A stretch of 64,000 nt of DNA from Mobula hypostoma (taxonomy: Eukaryota): contig NC_086108.1 of the NCBI RefSeq assembly GCF_963921235.1, forward strand, positions 47,990,001-48,054,000. Reading direction: 5' to 3'. Shown one piece after another: positions 6,836-57,335 of this stretch. The translations under genes were made by a program, and so were the position numbers. Below the pieces are notes generated by a model that searched no databases, was not told the origin of the DNA, and saw only the letters and a list, made by a program, of their open reading frames with translations. Position 1 is the stretch's first letter; each line of letters starts with the position of its first letter.

Positions 6836-8289
6836 TTCACTGCCCTTTTGGAAGTTGTTGCAAGATGATTCTTTAATATTTATATATGGTTGCAGTAATG
6901 GCAACAATGCAATGAGTAAAATTTTTTTCCACCTTGAGCCTTGAGGTGGGGTGAGTGGGTATTGGCTTTGCAACTTCTCTTGAGAATGGGATACAATTCC
7001 CAATGCAACATGCAACATGGAGTGTATACCATTTGCATCTTACATTCTGGAGAATATACCAATGGGAATATGATATTCAGATTTTGGGGAATAAATTAGT
7101 GCTCAGTTAACAGTGTGCTTACAAGAGAGGAATTTCTATGTTAATTACGCATTAACTTAACAAGCTGAATGATATGATCATCTTAATTGAAAGCAAGGTC
7201 ATTTTGCCAAGAAGAGGCATGTTATCCACTTTTACGGCTAATTGTTCCCACAGAGATAATTAGAACTTAAAGAGGCTATACAAACGTAAGTTGTTATTAT
7301 TGTCTTACAGCATCTCAAATAAACATCAGCTATAAACTGCAATCCTTTGATGTTTTCTAAAGTCTGCCAAGGTTTTTGCTTGATGTTGTAGCAGTTTTCA
7401 TTCCTCAGCTGAAGTAAATTTTGTAAGGGAAATTATCCTAGATAGATGAGGAACATTTGTTGCTTTATTGACATTATAGCCTTGTATCTCCCTTGTCCTT
7501 TGGACATCAAGGATTCTATGATCATTTTTCCTTAAAACTTCCTGTAACTTTAGAAAGTCACTTAAGTAAAATAGTACTCTTTATTGTCACTTAGCCACAC
7601 ATAAATATAAATAAATCATAAAGACAGAAAATCTCCCTTCAAACAAAATGCTTACAATTTAAGCACATCAGTAATATTTTAATTTTCAGCAGGAGGTCAC
7701 AATCAGTTCATTGAATGATCTGAATTAATGAATCATCTTAACTTAATTCCATGACAAAATGGAGCTTTAATGTTCTTCCCTGCAAAGTCTCTTGATAATA
7801 GTATCATTACTCAACCACCAGACAAAAAAATCTCCACCATCAATTAAAGTTATACTATGGGCAAAATAATTCTGGAAGCTTTCAAAGCACAGAGAAGTCT
7901 ATAAGGATGAACAACTATTGTTGTGATAAGGCCACACTCAGGTTGGAGGAACAACAGCTCATATTCAATTTGGGTAACCTCCAACCTGATGACATGAAAA
8001 TCGATTTCCCAAACTTCCACTAATGTTCCCCCTTCACCATTTTCCATCCCCCTTTCCCCCTTTCATATTATCTCCTTGCCCACCCATCATCTCCCTTTGG
8101 TGCTTCTTCCCCCAACCCCTTCTTCTTTCTTCCATGGCCTTCTGTCTCTTTCACCAATCAACTTCATGCCCCCCACTCCAAGTTTCACCTGTTGCCTTGT
8201 GTTTCTCTCCTCTCCGCTCCCCCCATCTTTCAAATCTACTCCTCAGCTTTTTTCTCCAGTCCTGCCCAAGGGTTTTGGCCAGAAATGTC

Positions 8290-11200
8290 TTCTTCCCAAT
8301 ATTTTTATTAGTTTCTACATAGAAGAATACAGAGTACAAGAAAGTATATATATAAAAGGTCAAAAAAGATTAAAAACTACCAATTACATTATATCTATTC
8401 ATAATAACAATCTCATTTCCTCGTATTCCTGTAAGTTATTCAACAGTTATATTGAAACATAATACTTTCTCATATAATAAAAAATAATAATAGCCAACAT
8501 CTGAATTTAAACAACCAATTGGAGGTTTTGAAAATAATTCAGGAAAGGTCCCCACAATGTTTGAAAGTCTTGACGAGATTCAGAAATTGAACAACAAATC
8601 TTCTCTAAATCTAAGCATGACATAACGTCGCATAACCATTGAGCATGAGTAGGCGGAAAAACATGTTTCCATTTAAACAAAAGCACCCTCCTAGCTATAA
8701 GAGAGCTAAAGGCCAAAATATGTAAATCAGATGTCTTCAGCTTGATATCTTGTCCTGCAACAATACCAAATAGGGCAGTCAGAGGATTAGGCTTAAAATT
8801 GACTTTGAAAAGTAAAGAAAAAGTCTGAGAAACTCCCTTCCTATATTTTTCAAGAGTCGGACAGGTCCAAAACATATGAATTAATGAAGCTTCTCCATTA
8901 TTACATCTGTCACAGTAGGGAGATATATCCGAATAAAAACAAAACAGCTTAACCTTAGTCATTTGAGCTCTATGTACCACCTTAAATTGTATGAGGGAAT
9001 GGCGAGCACATAATGATGAAGTATTAACTGGTTTAAAATTTTTACTCCAAGTTTCCTCAGATACTGATGTCTGTAAATCTTGTTCCCAGAGATTCTTAAT
9101 TTTGTCTAAAGGAACATTCCTTGTCTCCAGTAACATACCATAACTATTAGATGTTGAACCATGATGAAAAGGTGTCAAATTGAAAATTACGTCTAGTAAG
9201 TTTTTATCTGCGCTTAGAGGAAATGTGCATAATTGAGATCTTAGAAAGTCTCTGATTTGTAAATATCTAAAAAAGTGGGTTTTGGTAAGCTATATTTAGC
9301 TGACAATTGCTCAAATGAAAAAAGATTTCCTCCAACATACAGATCCCAAAAACATGTGTTACATACCTCGTGGGTATCTTGTGACTGTCTTATGACCATG
9401 ATGTAATTGAGTGTCTTGTGAGCGTGATGTAATGGTCTTCTGGAGGTCACATGATGTAATTTCCCCGCCAGCGTGAGGTCACATGATGACCTGTTCTCAA
9501 CAGGTATATAACGGGAAACCCCTGTTGTTACGCAGTTTTTTTTAGTTCGTCAGTTACTCCGTTATGCTGCGTATTTGTCTCATGGCGCAGTTTAGCTTTA
9601 AAATGGAGTTTTACTTTCTATTTTAAGGTGCAAAGATTGGTGCTAGCAGTTTTGCCAGTCGCTGCCAGTTTTGTGTGTTGCATCTATAATTTTTCCTTTA
9701 CAGTAGTATTGGAGAGTGAAGGATCGAATAAAGTCGGAGTCGTTCGGCGGTTTTATAAAGAATCGACCTTATTGAGTCTTTGTTCAGAAATAGTGACATG
9801 CATCTGAGATAACTCCTGCAACAGCAGGGAAGTTTGTGCAGTGTTCACTCGCTAGGAAAAGGTCAGTTCCTTTAAGCCATTTTATTTCCTTCGTCGTGAA
9901 TCCTTTGGAGAATTAGCAGTAACGTCACGTTTTCGAAGAAATCCGTTTCCGGAGAAGTCTCTCCTTATTGACTGTGTAAATCACTTGGACTTTTGAATTT
10001 ACCACTTTAAGAACTGTTCCAGAGTTGCCGTATAGCAGTTAACTTCCGGTTAAGTTAGTCGTTTGAATATTTTTTCCGCTATTGTTGAGCAGAGTTTAAT
10101 AAATGTTTGTTTGTTTATAAAACCTGACTCAATTATATATTCATTGTTGCTGATTATGTAACACATTTAATACACAACCTGTCCCATTCTTTAAAAACTA
10201 AAACAGTCATGGAGGGTTTAAAAAAAGTTAGAATAAATGGGATTTGAAAGAAAAAATCTCAATAAACCAAAGTGTTTTCTAAATTGTATCTAGATCCTCA
10301 GGGTATGTTAAACTATTAAATTATCAGTTAGTTTACTTACAAATAAAGGAAGTGAGGATCCAAGAAGAGAAATAATAGAAAATTTATTAACAGAGTTAGC
10401 TCCTAAAGAAACCCATACCGGACAGTCTACATAATTAATATAATATAGCCAAAACGTAAGACATCATATATTAACTGCCCAGTAATAAAACCTAAAATTA
10501 GGTAAGGCTAAACCTCCAGACTTTTTAGATTTTTGAAGATGAACTTTATTTAAATGAATGATGTTTATTTTTCCATATATAAGAGGACAAAATAGAATCA
10601 AGGGAGTCCAAAAAGGATTTAGGAATAAAAACGGGTAAAGCCTGAAAAAGATGTATAAATTTAGCTAGAATATTCATTTTAATAGAATTAATTCATCCAA
10701 TCAATGATATTGACAGAGGTGACCAATTCAATGACATCCTTTTTATATGGTTCAATAAAGTAAGAAAGTTTTCTTTAAACAGGTGTTTGTAACTCTTAAT
10801 GACTGTTACACCCAAATAAGTAAATTGATTCCTTGCAATGTTAAAAGGGAGATTAGTATTAATTGATACCAAATTATTTAAAGGAAATAATCCACTCTTA
10901 TGTAGGATCAATTTATATCCTGAAATCTGGCTAAAACGGGAGAGTAAAGAAAGTACGCAAGGAAATGAGGTCTCAACATAGGAGATAAAAAGCAATATAT
11001 CATCAGTGTAAAGCGAGATTTTGTGAGTAAATCCTCTCCTTAAAATACCACAGATATCACTAGATTCTCCAATGGCTAGGGGTTCTAAAGCTAAATCAAA
11101 GAGCAAAGGACTCAACGGACAACCTTGTCTAGTTCCGCGGTGAAGTTTAAATGGTTTGGAACTTTGAAAGTTAGTAAGAACTTGAGCAGAAGGAGATAGA

Positions 11201-14200
11201 TAAAGTAATTTAATCCATTGAATCAAATCTGGTCCAAAATTAAATTTTTCTAAGGTTTTAAATAAATAATTCCATTCAACCTGATCAAAGGCCTTCTCAG
11301 CATCTAAGGATATCACACATTCTGATATCTCCTGAGAAGGAGAGTAGGTAACATTTAAAACACGGTGTATATTAAAATGGGAATGTCGGTTTTTTAATAA
11401 ATCCAGTCTGATCATCAGAGATAATAGAAGGTAAATTATTTTCAATCCTACGAGCCAGAACTTTAGAAAGGATTTTAGTATCAACATTAAGTAATGAAAT
11501 TGGTCTATATGAAGAGCTTTCAGTTGGGTACTTGTTCTTTTTCACAATAAGTGAAATAGAAGCTTCATAGAAAGATTGAGGCGAGCTACCCAATTTGAAA
11601 GAATCCAAAAAAACTAAGTGTAACTGCGGTATAATTAATGAGGAAAAAGCCTTATAGAATTCTCCAGAAAATCCATCTGAACCCAGAGCCTTCCACGAGT
11701 GTAATGAACGTACAGCCTCAGCAATTTCCTCATAAGAAATGAGTTGATCCATCTGTTTGCAATTATCTGCAGAAAGTGCAGGGATATTTAATTGATCCAG
11801 AAAATTATTCATTACAGTACTATCTTTGGGAGAATCAGAACTATAAAGTTTAGAATAGAATTCTCCAAAGGTATCATTTATTTCAGAGTGATCAGTTGTC
11901 CTATCACCATTAGTTTTACAAATTTCTTTAATTTGTCGTTTAACAACAGAAATTTTTAATTGGTTGGCCAATACTTTGCCTGATTTATCTCCATGAATGT
12001 AAAAATGAGTTTTATCTTTAAGAATTTGAGTTTCAATTGGATATGTTAACAGAAGATCATATTTAGTTTTAACTTCAACACGTCTTTTATATAAAACAGA
12101 ATCTGGAGCTGTAGCATATTTTTGATCTAATTGTTTCAATTGATTGGCGAATTCTTTCTTTATTAGCTTTATTCTTAACACTCACAGTATAAGAAATAAT
12201 TTGTCCTCTAATATAGGCCTTGAAAGTATCCCATACAATAAGATTAGAAGTCACTTCCTTTTTATTCTCTTCAAAAACAAAATAATATGCCTCTCTAGAA
12301 ATTTTAAAAATTCCTTATCAGATAACAAAGTTGTATTAAAACGCAAAAATCTATTTGTTTGGGGAAAACCAAGGAGATTTAAAGATAGAAATACAGGACC
12401 GTGATCTGAGATTGCATTCTCTTTATATTCACAGGAACGAACTGATGAAATCATTTGACTATCGATAAAAAAAATCAATCCTGGAATATGTACGATGGAC
12501 ATGGCAAAAAAAAAACCAAGTACTCCCTATCTAAAGGATGTAAAAAACGCCAAATATCAACAATACCACACTTCAATAAAAAAGATTGAATAAACAAAGC
12601 TGATTTGTTAAGAGACATTGGTTTAGAAGATGATCGGTCTAAAATTGGGTCTAGCCAACTGTTAAAATCTCCTCCCATCACCAGAGAATAAAGACTCAGA
12701 GCTGGTAAAAATGAAAAACAAATGCTCAAAGAATCCTGAATCATTTTGCCTGAAACTATAACAAAACGTCCATTGGTATCAGACACTACTTTATGTTGGA
12801 CAAAGGAAAGTGTATTATCTATAAGAGTTGAAACTCCTCTAGATTTAGCCTGAAAAGAAGAATGAAAACAAAGTCCATTCCAACGGCTAAAAAAACCGTA
12901 AATTATCACATTTGCGTATGTGAGTTTCTTGTAAGAAAATAATAGGAACCTTAAATTTCCTAATAAAAGAAAAAATCTTTCTACATTTAACAGAGTGATT
13001 TAACCCTTTCACATTAAAACTGAGTAAATTAATAGCTTGGTCCATTTTTAATATTATTTAAAGGAAGGGTTAAAATGTAAGTTAAAACCAACCCATAAAT
13101 CTTGAGAAATGGTAACCAAGCAACAAGTTGGCTAAAAATTCGAAAACAGCTTCTGAGAAAAAAAACCATACCCCCGCCCACCTCCCAAAGAAAAAAGGCC
13201 GACCAATAGAAAGCCGGCATCTACAACTACGGACAACCCCCCAAAAAACCTGGTGATCGCTCCAATTAGTTTCAAGGTTATTTATATTCCAACCTAGACA
13301 AAACAATATCCAAACAAGAAATTCAATTCTCATATATCAAAAATACAGTATTAAAAATACAAAAAGAAATTAGTTACAAAGGTTTACCAAAAGTAAAAGA
13401 TGCAATTATTCATACAGAAAGACATTAACCATTAATCTTGTATCTTCATGAAAAACAGACTAAGCAGTTAGCCTTCAAATTTAAAAAATCTTTGTGCTTC
13501 AGCATTCAAACGAAACTATTCGAAGGATCCATCTTTAATGAGTTTCTCAGTCAAACTGGGTAGCCAGGGGATGGCTTGAGACCTTTGTTAAAAAAAATCC
13601 CTCAAAGCTTGTTTACACTTAGCATATTCCTGCATAACCTCAAATGAATAATCTTCGAGGATCTTAATATTCCAACCTATAACCAATCATGCCCCTTCGA
13701 CGAGATCCGCAAATTAAACGTTTCTCATTTAATCTTGTGTCTTCATGTAAAGACAAATTAAACAGCTAGCCTTCGGATTTTAAAAACCTTTGTGCTTCAA
13801 CAGTCGAACAAAACCATTTGGAAGATCCATCTTTAAGTGTGATTCTGAGTCAGGCTGGGTAGCGAAGGGAAGGCTTGAAACCCTTGTTAAAAAACACGGA
13901 CATAACTTCTTTGAATTTAGCATGTTCCTGCATAACCTCAGGAGAGATTCGCGAATTAACAGTTCCTTTGTTTGAAATTCATGAAAACAGATTATTACTG
14001 ATCTTGGTCTATCTCCCTTAGGAGGTCTAAACACAGGAGATCTGTAAACTTGATCAATCATAGGCAAAGATGTCAAAATTTCTGGAAATAATTCTCCCAA
14101 AAAGTTTGCAAAAAATTCCATAGGATGATTACCTTTGATTAATTCTTCGAGACCCAGAACCCGTAGGTTGTTTCTTCTACTACTTTCTAGGTTGATCATC

Positions 14201-14611
14201 TTCTGTCTTAACTTTTCGTTGGACTGAGATTGCTTTTACAAAGCTTTTGCAATTCATCCATTTCCGTTTCCAGAGACGACAAAATTGTTTCATTATTTTT
14301 TATACATTTATCATGTTCGTTAAGAGTTTGTTGAATAGAATCCAATTTACCATCTATTTGTTTAAATTCAGAGCTGAATTGTTGAAACTTCTCAGAGGCT
14401 TCTCATGTATGACTTTGCAGCAGATCCATAATAGAATCCAAAGAAGTAGGGAGATCATCCTTTTTAGTACCTCTGACACTCCTTCCAGTCCTAATGAAAG
14501 AATATCACACTTAAAAAATAAGCTTCAAGACAGGTTGGAAATAGTAAGATAATTAGAGTTGGAGCAACGGCAGATTGCTCTTACTCCATCAGCTACCACC
14601 AGGAAAAACCC
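8290..14611 (-). mobile_element. Near full-length L1-clade LINE, inactivated, with 13-bp TSD
   Basis: TSD ggccagaaatgtc at 8277-8289 and 14612-14624. ORF1 relic (LESSRRNNLRVLGL..RPRSVII, about 13730-14500). ORF2 from ATG 13045 (MDQAINLLSFNVKGLN) with endonuclease (GGDFN, SDH), RT (SLDAEKAFDQV, GTRQGCPLSP, YTDD) and CCHC knuckle (CDRC..HMFWTC), ending near 8507. AATAAA lies just before the 3' end. Confidence 0.95.
9357..10163 (+). mobile_element. Solo LTR (Gypsy-like, 807 bp) inside L1 ORF2
   Basis: TG...CA ends with a perfect 9-bp inverted repeat (tgttacata/tatgtaaca). 4-bp TSD with one mismatch (catg/catt). TATATAA at 9505-9511, AATAAA at 10098-10103. Removing it restores L1 ..IKCFWDL. Confidence 0.88.
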
Positions 14612-18982: not shown

Positions 18983-19076
18983 GTGTTTGTAGACAAACTA
19001 GATGTTTGTACTTAACTATATATAAAGGAACTCTATTTCATAATACCTTGCAAAAAGCAGATTATTACTCAGTTTA

Positions 19077-19265
19077 AGCAACACACATAAAAGTTGCTGG
19101 TGAACGCAGCAGGCCAGGCAGCATCTCTAGGAAGAGGTGCAGTCGACGTTTCAAGCCGAGACCCTTCGTCAGGACTGACGGAGCTGCCTGGCCTGCTGCG
19201 TTCACCAGCAACTTTGATGTGTGTTGCTTGAATTTCCAGCATCTGCAGAATTCCTGTTGTTTGTG
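19077..19265. mobile_element. 189-bp fold-back Penelope-derived mini-element with 12-bp TSD
   Basis: TSD ttactcagttta at 19065-19076 and 19266-19277. 47-bp inverted arms at 19076-19122 and 19183-19229 with one mismatch. Sequence is nearly identical to the pLTRs at 28452-28590 and 29960-30059. Confidence 0.9.
19140..19177 (-). ncRNA. Minimal type I hammerhead ribozyme motif (Penelope-associated)
   Basis: Minus strand reads cagtc CTGACGA a gggt-ctcg-gctt GAAA c GTC gactg: 5-bp stem I, intact core, stem II with G-U pairs, loopless palindromic ACGT stem III. Confidence 0.75.
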
Positions 19266-20659: not shown

Positions 20660-21598
20660 AAGGCAAGGATCGTGACGCTGCAACTCAAATCCGGAATCTG
20701 ACTTTCCCGTTTGTCTCTGTGTTTAATAATAATCTTATTGTAAAACGTTTTCTCTCTTTTCGAGAAGAGGCGCTCATCTAAAGGAAAATGTCTATTCTAT
20801 TAAAAAAGCAACCGATCTTAATGGGCAACACAATTGACACGCAGTTCGCCAAGTCCAGAAGCATGCTGTCAGCAGGTACTACTGAGATTTCTCAATGCCG
20901 ATCTGGTGTGCAGTTTAAGACAGAGATAACGCAGTCTCTTCTATTTTCTCCAGTATTTCTGCTAAGTAGAAGCTTCACGTCCGCGCCTTCATCAATGACC
21001 CAGAGCTAATCTGTTTTCTTGTAATTACGTTGGATCTGCAACTAGTGATGTAATTAAATGCCGGCTCCCAGCCCAACTCCATCAATTTTAATTACAAACA
21101 TACTTATAATTATCGAACTCGCTTTGGAAAAAAAAACTTTAAAAACGTGCTGAACGCGCGGTGCATTTTTCCATTGATCCCTGGAGTCAACAGTACTGAG
21201 GGCTGACCTTTAAACTTAGCACTCGCCCCGAAGCGGGCCCCTAAAATCCGAATGACTCCTGTGTAGTGTGCTCCAATCGGCACACAGCGCTCACCAGGGT
21301 ATCATCTTGCCTTGTTGCGGAGAGGGAAGAGGCTGACCCGAGCAGTAGAGCTTACAGTCTGAACCAATTCTTCTCACAGTCAGGCTATTCCTCAGATCCG
21401 GCCACTTCACCCCAGTCTAACTGTACAACAGGAGGCAAGGGGAGACCGGCGGAGCATCTGCACCTTTGAACAACCTCTGGAGATCAGAACCAGATGTGAG
21501 AAAAGTTCATTTCTATTGCCTTGCAGATCAAATCTTTGCTTTTTAAATGCATCGCCTAGATTTACACGTCGTTTGACTTTTGGAGGACGGAGTTTAAG
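20660..21598 (+). promoter_or_regulatory. Putative HMCN1 promoter and 5' UTR
   Basis: Directly upstream of the first coding exon, visibly CpG-enriched (gaacgcgcggtg, ctcgccccgaagcgggccc) and free of recognisable TEs. The TSS cannot be located from sequence alone. Confidence 0.6.
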
Positions 21599-21878
21599 AT
21601 GATTGTACCAATGAACATGAGATGGGAAATTAAAACTTTCATCGTGTGCCTTGCCCTGCTCTTCTGTCCGACCGTTCAAGATGCTCCTGAGGGCGGGCAG
21701 GAGGCGCAGGATGTCCCGGAGGGAGCCTCCACCCTGGCTTTTGTGTTTGATGTGACCGGGTCCATGTATGATGACTTGGTCCAAGTTATTGAAGGAGCTT
21801 CAAAGATCTTGGAGGCATCCTTAAGCCGACCCAAGAAGCCTCTGTATAACTTCGCTCTTATACCCTTTCACGACCCAG
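21599..21878 (+). CDS. HMCN1: Hemicentin-1 coding exon 1 (signal peptide plus vWA domain N-terminus); partial gene
   Basis: Hydrophobic leader, then [55 protein letters not shown], which matches vertebrate HMCN1 as I recall it better than HMCN2 (SMWDELMQVIDG). MIDAS-like DVTGS. Phase-1 donor CAG|GTAAGG with GT at 21879-21880. Alternative in-frame ATGs at 21611 and 21617. Confidence 0.96.
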
Positions 21879-22859
21879 GTAAGGTTGATGTTGATTTCTG
21901 ACACGGGCCGATTTTATCGTAGTGACGTTTTGGGCGCATTTCTTCGGGTGTTCGAAACACACCCAGATTACTATTTTTTTCATTAAACACATTGCTGTTC
22001 TTACTGTTGAATGAACCGAGAATAGTTCTCCCCACTGTTTCAAAACATTTGCAATTTCTTTGGCAAAATGTAAGTTAGCAAGGACACTTCCCTCACCCCC
22101 AGCACCTCTTTGTCCCGCTGAGTAGACTTAGGGCCCTATTTAACACACCGCTGTCCTCGGAACGAACGCCTGCTGCTTTGAGCGGCGAGCTGTCTGAAAC
22201 ACGCTCAGCTCCTCGGGGAGTGAGGACTTGTGTCAGACTATGAAAGGGCAGGGAAACAGAGTTCAGAATCTGGGACAAATTAAATGCCATTTCTCAGCAG
22301 GATGAAATGAGCAGTTTGTAGTGGGGACTACATGGAATGGACCAACAGCAGGAGAACTGGAATCCATGCCGTTCCCCGGATCATGGGAAATATCGAGTAT
22401 ATTGTACTTGGCAGGCAATTTGTCATTGAGGTGGGTTGAATAAAAGTCAGCTTCATTGATGCTATAATTCCGATTTGAACAAGACCCGGGATTATTCCCC
22501 CCCCCCCCAGCATGAGCTAGAGGTCAACTGCAGAAGCCACATTCTCAGCAATCTCACATTTCCAAACCACAGGGGTCCACAGCAATGTCGAATACTGTAG
22601 ATCCCCTTTTTTGCTGGGAAAAGTTCACATTCCCCGCCGAATTTTTTTGGGGAGGGCGGTGGCAGGGATTTATCTCATTTGGTGAAAGGATGCGACATTG
22701 CACATTGATAGAGGGTGGAATGGGAGGAAGTTGTTTACACATCAATAAAACGTTGCTGGTAAAACTGCGTAAGGGAGTGCGATTTTAGAAGTGCGGTGCA
22801 CTTCGCTAAGACAGTAGAAGTCGCAGGCAGAAATAATTCAGCGACAATAACTTGTTCAT

Positions 22860-28135: not shown

Positions 28136-28550
28136 ACGAGAGCAATACACACAAAATGCTGGAGGAATTCAGCAGGTCGGGCAATATCTATGAAAATGTA
28201 GAGCAGGTTGCATTGGGAGCACCAGATACAGTAGGCCCCAACAGTTTCCCAGGTGAAGTGTTGTCTCACCTGGATGATTGTTTGGTGCACTGAATGGGCA
28301 TGAAGAAGGAGGTAAATGGGCAGGTGTAGTATTTCTGTTGCCTGCAGGCATATGTGCCAGGAGAGAGATTAGTGGGGAGCGACAAATGGACAAGGGAATC
28401 ATGGAGGGAGTGCTCACAGCAGAAAGCGGAGAGTAGGGGAGAAGTAAAAATGCAAACACGAGGAAATCTGCAGATGCTAGAAATACAAGCCACACACATC
28501 AAAGTTGCTGGTGAATGCAGCAGGCCAGGCAGCTTCTCTAGGAAGAGGTA

Positions 28551-28586
28551 ATTCAACGTTTCAGGCCAAGACCCTTCGTCAGGACT
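28551..28586 (-). ncRNA. Hammerhead motif in Penelope 3' pLTR, mildly mutated
   Basis: Minus strand reads agtc CTGACGA a gggtcttggcct GAAA c GTT gaat: core intact, GUU triplet, weakened stem I. Confidence 0.6.
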
Positions 28587-29963
28587 AACTGAAAGAAGAG
28601 CTAGTAAGAGATTTGAAAGTAGGAGGGGGAGGGGGAGATCCAAAATGATAGGAGAAGACAGGAGGGGGAGGGATGTAGCCAAGAGCTGGACAGTTGATTA
28701 GCAAAAGGAATATGAGAGGATCATGGGACAGGAGGCCTAGGGAGAAAGAAAAGGGGGGGGTGAAACCCCAGAGGATGGGCAGGGGGTATAGTGAGAGGGA
28801 CAGAGGGAGAAAAAGGAGAGAGAGAAAAAGAATGTGTGTATATAAATAAATAACGGACGGGGTACAAGGGGGAGGTGGGGCATTAGCGGAAGTTTGAGAA
28901 GTCAATGTTCATGCCATCAGGTTGGAGGCTACCCAGATAGAATATAAGGTGTTGTTCCTCCAACCTGAGTGTGGCTTCATCTTTACAGTAGAGGAGGCCG
29001 TGGATAGACATATCAGAATGGGAATGGGACGTGGAATTAAAATGTGTGGTCACTGGGAGATCCTGCTTTCTCTGGCGGACAGAGCGTAGGTGTTCAGCAA
29101 AACGATCTCCCAGTCTGCATCTGGTCTCGCCAATATATAGAAGGCCACATCGGGAGCACCGGACGCAGTATATCACCCCAGCCGACTCACAGGTGAAGTG
29201 TCGCCTCACCTGGAAGGACTGTCTGGGGCCCTGAATGGTGGTAAGGGAGGAAGTGTAAGGGCATGTGTAGCACTTGTTCCATTTATTAGGATAAGTGCCA
29301 GGAGGAAGATCAGTGGGGAGGGATGGGGGAGACGAATGGACAAGGGAGTCGCGTAGGGAGCAATCCCTGCGGAAAGCAGAGAGGGGGAGGAGGGAAAGAT
29401 GTGCTTAGTGGTGAGATCGCATTGGAGGTGGCAGAAGTTAGGGAGAATAATATGTTGAACCTGGAGGCTGGTGGGGTGGTAGGTGAGGACAAGGGGAATC
29501 CTATTCCTAGTGGGATGGCGGGAGGATGGAGTGAGAGCAGATGTGTGTGAAATGGGAGAGATGCGTTTGAGAGCAGAGTTGATGGTGGAGGAAGGGTAGC
29601 CTCTTTCTTTAAAAAAGGACGACATCTCCCTCGTCCTGGAATGAAAAGCCTTATCCTGAGAGCAGATGCGGTGGACACGGAGGAATTGCGAGAAAGGGAT
29701 GGCATTTTTGCAAGAGACAGGGTGAGAAGAGGAATAGTCCAGATAGCTGTGAGAGTCAGTAGGCTTATAGTAGACATCAGTAGATAAGCTGTCTCCAGAG
29801 ACAGACAGAAAGGTCTAGAAAGGGGAGGGAGGTGTCGGAAATGGACCAGGTAAACTTGAGGGCAGGGTGAAAGTTGAAGGCAAAGTTAATGAAGTCAGCT
29901 ATCATTTTGGATCTCCCCCTCCCCCTCCCACTTTCAAATCTCTTACTAGCTCTTCTTTCAGTT

Positions 29964-29999
29964 AGTCCTGATGAAGGGTCTCGGCCCGAAACGTCGACT
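29964..29999 (+). ncRNA. Intact minimal type I hammerhead ribozyme motif
   Basis: agtc (29964-67) CTGATGA (29968-74) a gggt-ctcg-gccc GAAA (29988-91) c GTC (29993-95) gact (29996-99). Predicted cleavage after C29995. Confidence 0.82.
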
Positions 30000-30359
30000 G
30001 TACCTCTTCCTAGAGATGCTGCCTGGCCTGCTGCGTTCACCATTAACTTTGATGTGTGTGGAGAGGTAAAAATATGTGTGCTGGATGCGGAGGTTCATGG
30101 AGTGGGTAGGTGATGGCAAGAGGAACTCCATCCCTGTTAAGATGGTGGGAATATGCGGTGAGAGCAAATGTCTGCGATGGGTGAGAGCAACATCAATGGT
30201 GGAGGAAGGGAAACCTTGTTCTCACATTCAGAGGCCAAAACAATAAGAACTGAAATTCTTCTCAAAATATGTCCACCTCTCAAATTTCTTTACAGTCTCT
30301 CTGCACGTCCCAAGTTTTTGGCCTAGTTTAAATTGTTATTTGGTAATGCTTCTGTGAAG

Positions 30360-33618: not shown

Positions 33619-35185
33619 CAGGTGTCCCCCGCTTTTCGAACGTTCGCTTTACGGAATCTCACTGTTACGAAAGACCTACATTAGTACCCTGTTTTCGCTT
33701 TCAGAAGGTGTTTTCACTGTTACAAAAAAAAAGCAGCGTGCGATAAAAGGCAGCGCGCGCCCCGAGCAGCCGCTCTCCCCGGATTCAGAACTGCATTCTC
33801 GCCGGCATTGCTTTAACACGTGCCCGTGAGCAGCCATTAGCAAGATGAGTCCTAAGGTATCGGAAAAGCCTGAAAGAGCTCGTAAGGGTGTTACACTTAG
33901 CGTAAAACTAGACATAATTAAACGTTTTGATCGTGGTGAACGAGACAAAGTGAGTTTGGCTTGTGGAAACTGATGAACATGATGTTGAAGGGGATTGGAC
34001 ATCCCATGACCAAGAACTGACAGATGAAGAGCTGATGCAGTTGGAAGAAAAAAGTTTAACAATCGAAACCGAATGAGTTATGATAAAGTACGACTTTAAT
34101 TTTGAAAGGGTACGTTAGTTTAGGGGATATTTGCAGGATGGTTTGAGTGCTTACAAAGAACTGTGTGATAGAAAAATGCACGAGGCTCAGCAGTCAAGCA
34201 AGCCTTCCACATCAGCCACAGCAGATGACGAACCGCGACCTTCGACATCGAGGCGAGCTGTCATCGGAGGTGAGCTGCCGGCTCTAATGGAAACAGACGA
34301 CAAGATGACACCCCAGTGTCCCACCACCCCAACCCCCAGGCTACGGACAGATACCAATTCGCAGAGAATGCAACGGTAGCTGGGAGGCACACAGCACATC
34401 TTTAAGAAAAAAGCTGAAATAAACATACTAATTAATTAGGTGCTGCCAGCATGTAAATGTCGGCCCAGATCAGAGATGATGCAATCGGAAATCAGCACTG
34501 ATCTGGGCCGACAATTACGTGCTGGGTGGCACCTAATTAATTAGCATGTTTGTTTCGGCTTTTTTCTTAAAGATGTGCTGGGTGCCTCCCGGCTACCGCT
34601 GCACCCCTGTGTGCTTCGCAGCAATGTATCGGTCGGCAGCCTGGAGGGTGGGGAACACTGCACCACCCAACCTGCGATGACTCAGTCTAACACACCATCA
34701 TCCGTGTGCTCGGCGCTGTCTTCCTGATTCTGGTAAGTGACTACACTGTACATACATTATTTCTACTTTATATCGGCTGTGTATTTTTACGTGTTATTTG
34801 GTATGATTTGGCAGCTTCATGGCTTAAAGGTTACTGGAGAGCGCTGGCGCCGTGTTTTTGCCAACAGCGCTTGCATGAGATTTTCTGCTGATGGCGCTTG
34901 CGTGAGATTTTCGCTCCGGAGAACAGTTCAGTAATGATTGTGGAAAAGTATTTCTACTTTATATAGGCTGTGTATTTATCGTAAAATTCCTGCTTTTATT
35001 ATATGTTACTGTTATTTTAGGTTTTATATGTTATTTGGCATGATTTGGTAGGTTATTTTTGGGTCTGCGAAGCTCACAAAATTTTCCCATATAAATAAAT
35101 GGTAATTGCTTCTTCGTTTTACGACATTTCGGCTTATGAACCGTTTCATAGGAACGCTCTACCTTCGGATGGCAGGGGAAACCTG
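33619..35185 (+). mobile_element. Tigger/pogo DNA transposon, internal-deletion derivative
   Basis: TA|caggtgtcccccgc ... gcaggggaaacctg|TA. ATG 33845 (MSPKVSEKPERARKGVTLSVKLDIIKRFDRGE) is fused directly to the C-terminal SHDQELTDEELMQLEE segment. Confidence 0.92.
34370..34602. repeat. Long imperfect palindrome inside the Tigger element
   Basis: Arms of about 104 bp (gcaacggtagctgggaggcac..cggcccagatcag / ctgatctgggccg..gtgcctcccggctaccgctgc) around a loop of about 24 nt; weaker pairing extends to about 34314/34660. Confidence 0.9.
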
Positions 35186-36984
35186 TACTCATCTACTTTG
35201 TTTTGTATACTGTGTTCATTACACCCTTCATCAGGACTCACTTTAACCCGAAGCATCAATTCCCCTTCATAGGTGTTGCCTGACCCATTGAGTTCCTCCA
35301 GCATTTTCTCCATTGCTCCAAATTTCCAACATCTGTCGTTTCTTCTGTCTTTCGTGTTTCTTCTCATTGACCCTAACATTTAAAGATCATACTGGCCGCT
35401 GAACTGAAAAGGCTATATTTTATGTGACTGGGAATGTTAGCAAATGAGAAGAAGAAGTCTCTTAAAGACTGAAATGAAATACAATCTAGAGTGTAGTTAT
35501 AATAACTTAATTTCTCCAGAACTAGACAGATACCTGTCAGGAACATTAGGAGATGCAGCATTTGTTTGGCCCGGATTCTTGCAATCCTATGTATGTATGT
35601 ATGTATATGCATTTTTATCACATTGGCAATGTGACCCTGGGTGATGAATTTAACTGTGAATATCTTTACTTCTGCATACCCGAATGCTTTGACTGAGTTG
35701 AGCTTTCACAAATGCAATGCCCAAGAGACAAATATATCATTTATTTCCTGAACATTTTGATTTGGAGAACTGCTATAATATCTTTATAATAATGAAAGAC
35801 AAACATAAAACCTCAATACTATTTCCTATTCTGGATATGAATGAAATATTGAGAAAATGAAGAGGTTTAATCATAGAATTGTGAGAATTTTTTAACACAA
35901 CAGAGGGGTGATAACCATTCTAAGTGATAAGTACTTTCAATGGAAAAGATTTATCCATTGTATATTTTCAGAGAGGTATATTCTTACTATTAGGATCACT
36001 TGAGTGTTTAAAGTACATACATGTTCATTGTAATAGCCGAATCAAACTTGCATATGAAACTTCTTTGAAAATTCAAGGCTTTCCTTTCTGCTTTTACTTG
36101 AAGACCACTGTCTAACACCATGTCCTGAAGAAGGACTTCAGCCTAAAACATCAACTATCATTAGTTTCCATAGATGCTGCCTGACCTACTGAGTTCCTCC
36201 AGCATTTTCTGAGTGTTACGATCTCCAGCCTCCTCCAAAAGCCTGGCTGTGGAGTAAATGCCTTTTGGTTTGAGGCATTGAATGTGCAGCTGACTGCTCA
36301 GGATTGGTCTGTCACCCATGTATGCTCAGTAATATTTATCTTTCTCATCTCACAATTGGCTCAATATCTTCAAAATTATTTGAAGAAAAGTCATGGAGCA
36401 AATTTTTCAAAGCTTCACTGAAGTGAATTATATTAAAGTAGGTTCTTTTTAGGTGAGTGACAGAGAGAAGATTGATAATGTGTAAATTACACACCCAAAC
36501 TATCATTTGGATTTATGTTGTGCAACGCTGAAGAAACAGAAAGAGGATTCAAGGGCTCTGGAGATCCCGGGGTTTCAGTGGGGTGTGGGGGAGGGGTGAG
36601 AGACCAGTCACTTCTACTCCAGGCTCAAAGAACACCTGTTGAATTTTGAAGCCTGCTAATTACTTCAGCGCTTTTCTGGCAATTAGTAAAGGTCAATGAT
36701 AACATCTTTCACCTGTGAGACAGAGGATCTCATTGTGAACCACCGTGTGTGGAAATAGGAGAGGGAGACAGAAAAGGGGAAAGTTGGATTTTGAAAACAA
36801 ATGAAGCCTTTTTTTGAGAGGGGGGAGAAGCTCAAAGGGGCTGAGGAACATTGGTGTGGTGGGGGATGGGTCTAATGGCTTCCTGCCACCTGCCCTTTTG
36901 TGAATGAATAAATTCAGGGTAAGTTGAGTGCTGTGGCTTGGTGGTGATGGTGGTGTCAATTTGCAACTAGGGAGTTGTTCATTT

Positions 36985-55015: not shown

Positions 55016-55740
55016 CAGTGATACTAGAAAGTTTGCGCACTCTGTAGAATTTCCTCTTATTTCTGTATAAATATGATCTTAAGTGTGATCAGATCTTCAT
55101 GTAAGTTCTAAAACTAGATAAAGAGAACACAATTAAATAAATAACACAAAAACATTACACTTGTTCATTTACTAATTGAGGGGAAAAATGATCCAATATT
55201 ACATGTACTTGTTGGAAAAAGTAAATTAACCTCTGGGGTAATGCCTTCTACAAAAGCTATTTGGAATCGGGTGTCCCAATCATTGAGATGAGATTGGAGG
55301 TGTTGGTTGTAGAGGTGCCTTGCCCTATTTTTTTTTAAAGATGCACGAAATCATGTTACTGACACAGCCTGCTCTTGAGAAAGGTCTGTTTATGTGCACC
55401 ATGCCTTGTGGACCTTAGAAGAAGAACTGTAGAAATGCATGAAGCTAGGAAAGGGGACAAAAGCATTTCTAAAGACCTGAGTGTTCATCAGTTCTCAGTA
55501 AGAGAAATTGTCTGCGATAGCAGTACTGTTGCTGCTCTCCCAATGAGTGTGGGCATCCTGCAAAGAACACACTAAAATACAATGTGCAGTGCTGAAGAAG
55601 GTGAAAGAGAACCCAAAGGTAACGGTAAAAGACCTGCAGAAATATCTAGAACTTGCTAAAGTCTCTGATCATGTGTCCACGGTAAGAAAAACTGAACAAG
55701 AATGGTGTTCATGGAAGGACATCATGGAGGAAGCCACTGC
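55016..55740 (+). mobile_element. Tc1 transposon 5' half
   Basis: TA|cagtgatactagaaagtttg terminus. Paired-like HTH remnants DLRRRTVEMHEARKGDKSISKDL and VKENPKVTVKDLQ..HVSTVRK. Truncated by the Penelope fragment. Confidence 0.85.
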
Positions 55741-57335
55741 TATCCCTGTGGAAAGCAGAAAGTGGAGGGGAGGAAAAGATGTGCTTTGTGGTGGGATCCT
55801 GTTGGAGATGGTGGAAATTGCGGAGAATTAATGTGCTGGACACGGAGGTTGGTGGGGTGGTCAGTGAGGACAAGAGGAACTCTATCCCTGGTAGGATGGC
55901 GGGAGGATGGGGTGAGAGCAGATGTGTGTGAAATGGAAGAGATACGGTTGAGGGCAGCATTGATAGTGAAGGAAGGGAAGCTCCTTTCTTTGAAGAAGGA
56001 GGACATCTCCTTCGTTCTGGAATGAAGAGCCTCATCTTGAGAGCAGATGTGGCGGAGATGGAGGATTTGGGAGAAGGGGATGGTTTTTGTACAGGTAACA
56101 TGGCGGGAGGAGGTATAGTCCAGCTGGCTGTGGAAGTCTGCAGGTTTGTAATAGACATCAGTAGATAAGCTGTCTCCAGAGACAGATTCAGAGACATTAA
56201 GAGAGGGGAGGGAGGTGTCAGAAATAGACCAGGTAAGTTTGAGGGCAGGGTAGAAGTTGGAGGCAAAGTGGATGAAGTTGACGAGTTCCGCATGGGTGCA
56301 GGAAGCAGCACCAATGTAGTCATTGATGTAGAATAGGAAAAGTAGGGGACGGATGCCAGTGTAGGCTTGGAACATAGACTGTTCCATGTAGCTGATGAAC
56401 AGGCAGGCATAGCTGGGATCCATGCATGTGCCCATGTCTACACCTTTTGTTTGAAGGAAGTGGGCGGAGCCAATGGAGAAATTATTGAGATTGAGGGCAA
56501 GTTCCGCTAGGCTAAAGAGAATAGTGGTGGAGGGGAACTGGTTGGGTCTGGTGTCCAGAAAGAAATGGAGAGCTTTGAGGCCTTTCTTGTGGGGGATGGA
56601 GCTGTATAGGGACTGGGCATCCAGGGAACCAGTAAAAATAAGATTATATGGGCCAGGGAACCTGACACCATTGAAAAGATCCAGAGGGTGTGAAGTGTCA
56701 CAGATGTAGGTAGGAAGGGACTGAACCAGGGGGGAATAAAACAAGAGTCAAGGTATGCAGATATGAGTTCACTGGGGCAGGAACAAGCTGAAACAATGAG
56801 TCTACCTGGACGAGTGGGTTTGTGGATCTTGGGTAGGAGGTAGAAACAGGAGGTGTGGGAACTATGAGATTGGTTGGGAGATCCCCAGAGTTGATAATGT
56901 TGGTGATGGTGTGGCAGACAATGGCCTGGTGCTCCTTAATGGGGTTTTGTTCGAAGCGCAAGTAAGAGGAGGTGTCTGGGAGTTGCTACTGGGCCTCCGC
57001 AAGGTGGAAGTCAGTACACCAGACGGCATCAGTAGCATCTGCGGGGTTGACGGTGAGGGAGTGGAGAGCATTGTGTTCAGAAGGAATGAGGTTGGAGTTG
57101 GAGAGAGGAGTGTTAAAGACCAAATGGTTAATGCAGTTAGCAATGAAAAGCCCCGGAGCAGGCAGAAGACCAGGGTGGGGTGTCCAGGAAGAGGAGAGAA
57201 GGGAGTCATCAGTGCAGGCTGGAGAGTCCTTGCCAAGGAAATAGGCTCTGAGATGGAGGCGGTGGAAGAAGATCCCTTGGAGATGTGTTTGCCCAGATGA
57301 TAGATAGCCTGAGGTATTTTCTCCAGTGCTATTCA
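55741..57335 (-). mobile_element. Penelope-like RT fragment
   Basis: ORF 55740..56744: LDAQSLYSSIP, QTKGVDMGT..PSYACLF, YINDY (YIDD-like), DVYYKP; homologous to 29300-29890. Confidence 0.92.

Follow-up and report, generated by a model that had tools for sequence, protein, structure and literature searches.

Host gene and the Penelope-like insertion in its first intron

The window (the whole 64,000-nt stretch of Mobula hypostoma DNA analyzed here) contains the first exon of the hemicentin gene HMCN1 on the forward strand (21306–21878), with in-frame ATGs at 21599–21617 and a donor GT at 21879. Its 5′ limit derives from contigs that start at 21306–21398 and stop at 21878. They come from four sequencing runs, of which three are guessed to be RNA and the fourth is of unknown kind; in three of these runs, contigs extend past 21878 into other sequence. 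None of the runs is on record as RNA, and contigs are uninformative about RNA ends, strand, and locus-specific expression of repeats. The translated exon opens with a signal-peptide-like segment and continues into the beginning of the hemicentin VWA domain (Pfam VWA_4); the best named relatives of its product are hemicentin-1, hemicentin-2 entries score lower, and a hemicentin paralogue is present on another contig. Exon 2 is located at contig position 48105584 (approximately window position 115,600), and the later exons continue on the forward strand to the G2F domain at 48.53 Mb. Intron 1 therefore spans about 94 kb. The region upstream of HMCN1 includes what we take to be a broken L1-like element with pieces of ORF1, endonuclease, and reverse transcriptase (RT) (8510–14235, reverse strand). 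A 107-bp near-perfect inverted repeat at 34433–34539, which yields sub-threshold matches to miRNA families on both strands, is likely a small transposon-derived palindrome.

Intron 1 harbors a 5′-truncated Penelope-like element (PLE) of 1,608 bp (28452–30059), flanked on the forward strand by a 14-bp target-site duplication (28438–28451 and 30060–30073) whose copies match at 13 of 14 positions, the best among lengths of 8 to 24. The element comprises a one-sided tail of 40 bp (28452–28491, reverse strand), a 3′ pLTR arm (28492–28651, reverse strand), a broken, 5′-truncated ORF remnant with the end of the RT, a Cys linker, and a GIY-YIG region (28886–29897, reverse strand; stop codon at 28883–28885), and an inverted pLTR arm of 161 bp that lacks the tail (29899–30059, forward strand) and begins at the truncation point of the ORF (29897/29899). 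The arms are identical in 149 of 161 aligned columns; the 3′ arm is antisense in the HMCN1 pre-mRNA and the inverted arm is sense. The insertion split an older PLE remnant (28139–30222, reverse strand; pieces 28139–28444 and 30074–30222) that is about 69% like the young one. A single insertion event, as shown by the duplication and the one-sided tail, left two outward-pointing pLTR arms. The same orientation was found in 38 of 46 inverted pairs in six genes, and lineage markers agree between the arms of one insertion beyond chance (19/21 versus 12.1 expected; 21/21 versus 15.1), as expected for arms made in one event.

The GIY-YIG match of the ORF remnant (E = 2.4e-4, 21.8 bits) falls just below the Pfam cut-off of 22.6; its endonuclease region has 12 longer homologues, and the closest named protein is from Mobula hypostoma (92%). 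A weak RVT_1 match (E = 0.056) was obtained for the RT of an 82%-like copy at 55743–56747. This copy belongs to a further PLE remnant (55696–57332, reverse strand) whose similarity to the young element is 82% across 540 bp and which retains an open RT stretch of 335 codons, with no hammerhead piece beside it. A linker of the CX2-5CXXC form between RT and endonuclease occurs in 22 of 24 family copies, there as CX4CXXC, and in P0121 and P0130; the copy in HMCN1 has lost its first Cys. Together with the inverted pLTR, the one-sided tail, and the target-site duplication, these features identify the insertion, as judged from sequence, as an endonuclease-positive PLE with a linker of the Neptune/Nematis type, where "Neptune-like" denotes a linker trait common to Neptune and Nematis. 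The PLE endonuclease region is also contained in three ray protein models that carry host-gene names (P0123, a kinase-domain protein; P0124, mucin-2; P0131, a chitinase-domain protein), which represent either exonized element pieces or annotation artefacts.

An intact minimal hammerhead motif

The inverted arm carries a minimal type I hammerhead on the forward strand (29964–29999; predicted cut C29995/G29996), 8.1 kb beyond the donor of exon 1. It is sense to HMCN1 because the arm that contains it is inverted, and the mapping of exons 1 and 2 agrees with its initial annotation as a sense-strand motif in intron 1. Stem I is formed by 29964–29967 and 29996–29999, and stem II by 29976–29979 and 29984–29987 with a 4-nt loop. 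The core consists of CUGAUGA (29968–29974) and GAAA (29988–29991), with an unpaired A at 29975, and stem III is reduced to a loopless ACGU palindrome (29991–29994) followed by H17 (C29995). All core positions (C3, U4, G5, A6, N7, G8, A9, G12, A13, A14, the pair A15.1-U16.1, and H17) are present, as are four pairs each in stems I and II, the pair G10.1-C11.1, and the unpaired A between positions 9 and 10.1, which is kept in 85 of 85 young copies of the family. The full core, both stems, and the palindrome are thus as first described, and the anatomy and core features agree with a PLE-type minimal hammerhead in an inverted pLTR arm; a place in the pLTR is characteristic of this class. The motif is a real, intact copy of a motif class already known from PLEs. 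A scan of the window with Rfam models (E up to 10) returned no hammerhead match and 12 sub-threshold matches elsewhere. The motif class is reportedly also in print in Lunse et al. (2017).

A second hammerhead of the same insertion (28551–28586, reverse strand), antisense to HMCN1, has an intact core and three of four pairs in stem I. The initial annotation listed seven related motifs in the window; a profile search recovered 13 family pieces. Among the seven, the cores at 19140, 28551, and 29964 are intact, and those at 8258, 17289, 36121, and 40423 are broken (G12 is lost at 36121). Three of the seven (8258, 17289, and 19140) precede the transcribed exon 1, and two (28551 and 40423) are antisense to HMCN1, which leaves the copy at 29964 as the only intact sense copy in the intron part of the window. 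The region upstream of HMCN1 also contains a short fold-back of the young family (19075–19263) with an intact hammerhead on the reverse strand; its arm reverses at 19182, a few bases ahead of the ribozyme front, leaving a 3′-end stub with a tail.

The proposal of a very high-copy ribozyme family is borne out by the 3.48-Gb genome, which contains 6,478 exact copies with C or T at N7 (3,230 + 3,248) and 59,060 copies with an intact core (29,492 + 29,568). A reversed control pattern had no matches, so that the hammerhead is not a product of chance, and a structure descriptor yielded 41 matches in 1.86 Mb and none in the reversed sequence. A third, rarer subfamily was encountered in three sampled intron segments (L097:257-369, L114:8627-8739, L141:9494-9606); its core and stems are unchanged, and its loop II and downstream flank differ. 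A literature search found no publication on Penelope in the Mobula genome and none on Penelope hammerheads in sharks, the lone match being a review that used "shark" for a shape.

Conservation between families and decay after insertion

The initial annotation had named excess conservation of the core over the flanks among young copies as a check on its reading. Among 85 young copies, selected on markers that lie beyond the ribozyme, the nine non-CpG core sites have accumulated 10 changes, versus 10.7 expected from flank rates, and the whole ribozyme has accumulated 36, versus 35.1 expected; an excess of core conservation is therefore absent. A raw comparison (10/765 core versus 160/4159 flank, p = 0.0001) had suggested such conservation and was discarded, as the signal disappeared after removal of lineage-polymorphic columns and base matching. 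G12 is lost in 9 of the 31 young copies in which it follows a C and forms a CpG.

The majority sequences of the young and old families, by contrast, differ at only 2 of 36 ribozyme columns (N7 and 11.1, both tolerated) but at 22 of 61 flank columns (p = 0.0006). Two-sided compensatory changes did not occur among the 41 descriptor matches, which stem from a single genome. The conservation of the motif between element lineages suggests that it likely matters to the element and not to the host. We infer that selection acts in the source elements and that inserted copies decay neutrally.

It is highly improbable that the motif is non-catalytic even in the source elements and kept as a signal for protein binding, promotion, or RNA start. 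Such a role would accommodate the U at position 11.1 in 53 of 85 young copies, where a G-U pair replaces the conserved G10.1-C11.1, and the unaffected insertion of hammerhead mutants in vitro (PMC11167929); functions besides cleavage are also allowed for in PMC4209133. However, the two family majorities agree throughout the core and in both stems while their flanks diverge, and the related motif of the anole element cleaves and responds to mutation and rescue of C3/G8 (PMC11167929). Position 11.1 (window position 29987) also stands out in other respects: U11.1 is far more frequent among the young copies than loss of G12, which affects just 9, and the arms of one insertion differ at this position in 8 of 21 pairs with other lineage markers agreeing, which suggests either that the site mutates unusually often or that more than one source element contributed.

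Strand distribution in introns

A second test proposed at the outset was depletion of intact motifs from the sense strand of introns. It was applied to 1,835,822 bases within six genes (1.79 Mb plus the intron part of the window), namely HMCN1 as far as the G2F exons, a 120-kb stretch of HMCN2, and parts of three presumably CSMD-like genes and one presumably cubilin-like gene, the names of the last four reflecting our reading of their CUB layout. Strand was assigned from exon matches, and the labels follow the six main genes alone, also where nested or antisense genes may occur within the sampled regions. A profile of the pLTR end matched 450 pieces and none in the reversed sequence. After five pieces upstream of HMCN1 were left out, 211 of 445 were sense (p = 0.30), as were 138 of the 292 pieces that span the ribozyme and 47 of 92 with an intact core. 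Intact copies numbered 26 sense and 18 antisense (24 of 38 sense in a strict set; eight sense copies in HMCN1 alone). A fresh 100-kb sample comprised 16 pieces, 7 sense and 9 antisense.

Depletion of sense copies is therefore not apparent, although a mild purge stays compatible with data from six genes and wide 95% intervals for the sense share (0.43–0.74 for intact copies; 0.36–0.83 for solo intact copies). The idea that sense copies survive only if masked is not supported, because 11 of the 18 intact copies without an inverted partner are sense; among all 26 intact sense copies, 15 have their own antisense arm. Tandem sense pairs gave no signal of depletion: the core-core tandems within 3 kb comprised 8 sense copies and 6 antisense ones. 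Tandem retrozymes are modestly under-represented in the introns of Xenopus (10.64898/2026.07.22.740005).

A difference in decay between sense and antisense copies

Young sense copies have accumulated fewer changes in 35 ribozyme columns than young antisense copies (1.05, n = 40, versus 1.98, n = 44; Mann-Whitney p = 0.0009). The gap persists in a gene-stratified permutation (p = 0.004), has the same direction in six of six genes, appears in both sample batches (p = 0.098 and p = 0.0015), and remains without the three worst copies (p = 0.002). Within pairs from the same insertion, the sense copy is the less changed one in 14 of 17 untied cases (3 opposite, 4 ties; sign test p = 0.013), and unpaired copies behave likewise (0.95 versus 1.91, p = 0.019). 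A control by contig strand revealed no difference (p = 0.64).

The antisense excess consists mostly of CpG decay and extends to loop positions. Across the element as a whole, ribozyme CpGs have an antisense/sense ratio of 1.98 and the remaining ribozyme sites one of 1.75; the ORF remnant has 1.48 (pooled; per copy, p = 0.096), the untranslated parts have approximately 1.2, and CpGs further downstream have 0.77. The gap in the downstream flank is weaker and non-significant (p = 0.15). Its presence in weaker form in the ORF remnant means that the gap is not specific to the core. The old family has no gap (8.25 versus 8.73, p = 0.41), and the fresh 100-kb sample held only two young full copies, which are uninformative and point in the opposite direction (sense 2, antisense 0). 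The gap was found post hoc among about 20 tests. Age is not enough to explain it, because it holds within same-insertion pairs whose lineage markers agree, and the classical transcription-linked A>G asymmetry did not differ (99/10945 versus 76/10573, p = 0.15).

The direction of the gap is the opposite of that predicted from harmful cleavage, and pure neutrality does not predict a gap at all. Chance and an orientation-dependent effect of methylation or repair are the likeliest causes; a literature search not aimed at this question alone found no such strand-dependent force on these repeats. Preservation of sense intronic copies by a host or strand-specific process, which would give them a role in the pre-mRNA and represent a first step toward domesticated hammerheads of the amniote type, is very unlikely. 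The consistency of the gap across genes and insertion pairs and the flat contig-strand control speak for such a process, but the post hoc origin of the gap, its bias toward CpGs, its extension to loops and the ORF remnant, its absence from the old family, the contrary direction in the fresh sample, and the antisense arms that accompany more than half of the intact sense copies all speak against it.

Predicted folding and possible partners

In the pre-mRNA, the antisense arm (28492–28651) is transcribed 1.25 kb ahead of the sense arm, to which it is 93% complementary; with the arms facing outward, the antisense arm would come first in either direction of read-through. The predicted arm-arm duplex (−298.3 kcal/mol) is far more stable than the best monomer fold (−10.1), and a fold of 28440–30110 places C3 to U16.1 in pairs with the antisense arm at a probability of 0.98–1.0, except for the mismatched positions 29982 (loop) and 29987 (11.1). 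These values are equilibrium predictions on naked RNA, and duplex formation across 1.25 kb could be slowed by proteins that bind the intron as it emerges. Among edited Alus, 78.3% had an inverted Alu within 1 kb (PMC4053975); this figure aside, the passages on distance in that source lend no direct backing to a duplex that spans 1.25 kb.

The monomer by itself is also predicted to be inactive. Its best fold is a hairpin that pairs G5-A6-U7-G8 with C15.2 to C17 (probability 0.51), whereas the open three-way fold has a probability of 0.014; stem I reaches only 0.00–0.09 in the local context without the antisense arm. The complementarity of G5-A6-N7-G8 (29970–29973) and C15.2-G16.2-U16.1-C17 (29992–29995), which is perfect in the 65 of 85 young copies with a C at N7, would constitute a self-inhibited monomer fold.

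The initial annotation had envisaged that the copy could cut the HMCN1 pre-mRNA when paired through ACGU with another copy in cis or in trans. This model, most plausibly with element RNA in trans as the partner and with help from the PLE protein, and with an occasional cut after C29995 that affects HMCN1 output little or to some degree, is unlikely. The copy has retained its core, stems, and palindrome, and potential partners are numerous, with tens of thousands of intact cores in the genome. The summed contig depth over the element is high in four of four runs, and the abundance of element RNA in the runs guessed to be RNA implies that partners in trans exist. A single minimal hammerhead did not cleave in vitro, and dimers or trimers cleaved little (PMC4209133), while the hammerhead of the anole PLE was cut only with the protein of the element, with no RNA-seq reads ending at the site (PMC11167929); general background on double hammerheads is given in PMC6466107. 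Against such pairing stand the predicted burial of the core by the antisense arm, the small predicted stability of the four-base palindrome duplex (−1.7 kcal/mol), and that of the modeled double hammerhead (−14.7 kcal/mol), which is lower than that of two inactive monomers (2 × −10.1) or of the best two-strand fold (−28.5). The first sense copy downstream that keeps its palindrome lies 36 kb away, has a G at H17, and is accompanied by its own antisense arm; the closest fully intact sense copy is 85 kb from the motif. A core predicted to be masked, no near partner in cis, and no depletion of sense copies leave the proposed cutting of the pre-mRNA poorly supported.

A probable passenger in an inverted end-repeat

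The hammerhead at 29964 is probably a harmless passenger in the inverted end-repeat of a truncated PLE, with no meaningful cutting of the pre-mRNA; what makes this likely is its predicted binding by the antisense arm that the insertion itself supplies. The two arms would form a duplex of about 160 bp that buries the core, and a lone monomer would prefer the inactive hairpin. In active source elements, selection would keep the motif, and tandem pLTRs together with the protein of the element would let it fold; once inserted, it would decay neutrally. Even a slow hammerhead cut within the intron would not be expected to stop splicing, which reportedly went on despite a slower hammerhead in an intron (Dye 2006; Fong 2009; both cited in PMC2995048).

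The single locus is of little importance. The larger point is that a vertebrate genome tolerates approximately 59,000 hammerheads with an intact core and that sense copies are not in deficit in the six sampled genes. This argues for effective silence of the minimal hammerheads of PLEs outside the RNP of the element and turns this silence into a question that is testable at scale. If the sense-antisense gap were true genome-wide, it would indicate that these repeats are subject to some force that depends on strand. The broader generalization that sense intronic PLE hammerheads are, across the genome, preserved about twice as well as antisense twins of equal age (through host selection or through orientation-dependent methylation or repair), and that the two-arm layout acts as an antisense lock that lets the elements accumulate in genes, is speculative and unlikely.

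Comparison with known systems

The motif class of the copy at 29964, the layout of its insertion, and the idea of dimeric cleavage are all already in print. With the intronic hammerheads of amniotes (RECK etc.; PMC6155905) and the intronic ribozyme of CPEB3, the motif shares its location on the sense strand of an intron. The amniote hammerheads, however, are single-copy and conserved across species, whereas the motif in HMCN1 is minimal and belongs to a family of young, neutrally decaying repeats with tens of thousands of members. Conserved amniote intronic hammerheads have canonical loop-loop contacts. A family of 59,060 copies with neutral decay of the core does not qualify as a domesticated intronic hammerhead.

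Non-LTR retrozymes likewise contain type I hammerheads of PLE origin in vertebrates (10.64898/2026.07.22.740005; PMC7229834), but they are head-to-tail tandem units without an ORF, whereas the insertion at 28452–30059 combines an ORF remnant with hammerheads on opposite strands. Its inverted arms and ORF remnant set it apart from this class, whose survey sampled one chondrichthyan (10.64898/2026.07.22.740005).

The closest resemblance is to the minimal hammerheads described from the pLTRs of metazoan PLEs by Cervera and De la Peña (2014; PMC4209133). Common features are the type I topology with a short stem I, the unpaired base between positions 9 and 10.1, the pair G10.1-C11.1, the palindromic 15.2-16.2 without loop 3, the location in a pLTR, and the occurrence in thousands of solo copies and in pairs on opposite strands. 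Of the four features which those authors give in addition to their descriptor, three are directly readable from sequence (the base between 9 and 10.1, G10.1-C11.1, and the palindrome), and all three are present. By contrast, stem II comprises 4 bp and not 7–8 bp as in Schistosoma, and the 59,060 copies compare, with different search methods, to about 9,000 in Xenopus tropicalis and 4,000 in the coelacanth (PMC4209133). The parts of the main text of this source consulted here name no cartilaginous fish, of which its supplements may hold examples.

Among vertebrate elements, Poseidon PAc of Anolis (Frangieh et al. 2024; PMC11167929) also has a hammerhead in its pLTR and two 3′ ends about 40 nt apart, and the two ends of the arms of 28452–30059 fit the pair of sites at which the anole element is reported to initiate. 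PAc belongs to another clade, and its activity was shown with purified protein. With endonuclease-positive PLEs in general (PMC8557442; PMC3846280), the insertion shares the 5′ truncation, the adjacent inverted pLTR, the one-sided tail of 30–40 bp, the target-site duplication (14 bp here versus 8–10 bp in the rotifer examples), the insertion into an older PLE, and the C-terminal GIY-YIG.
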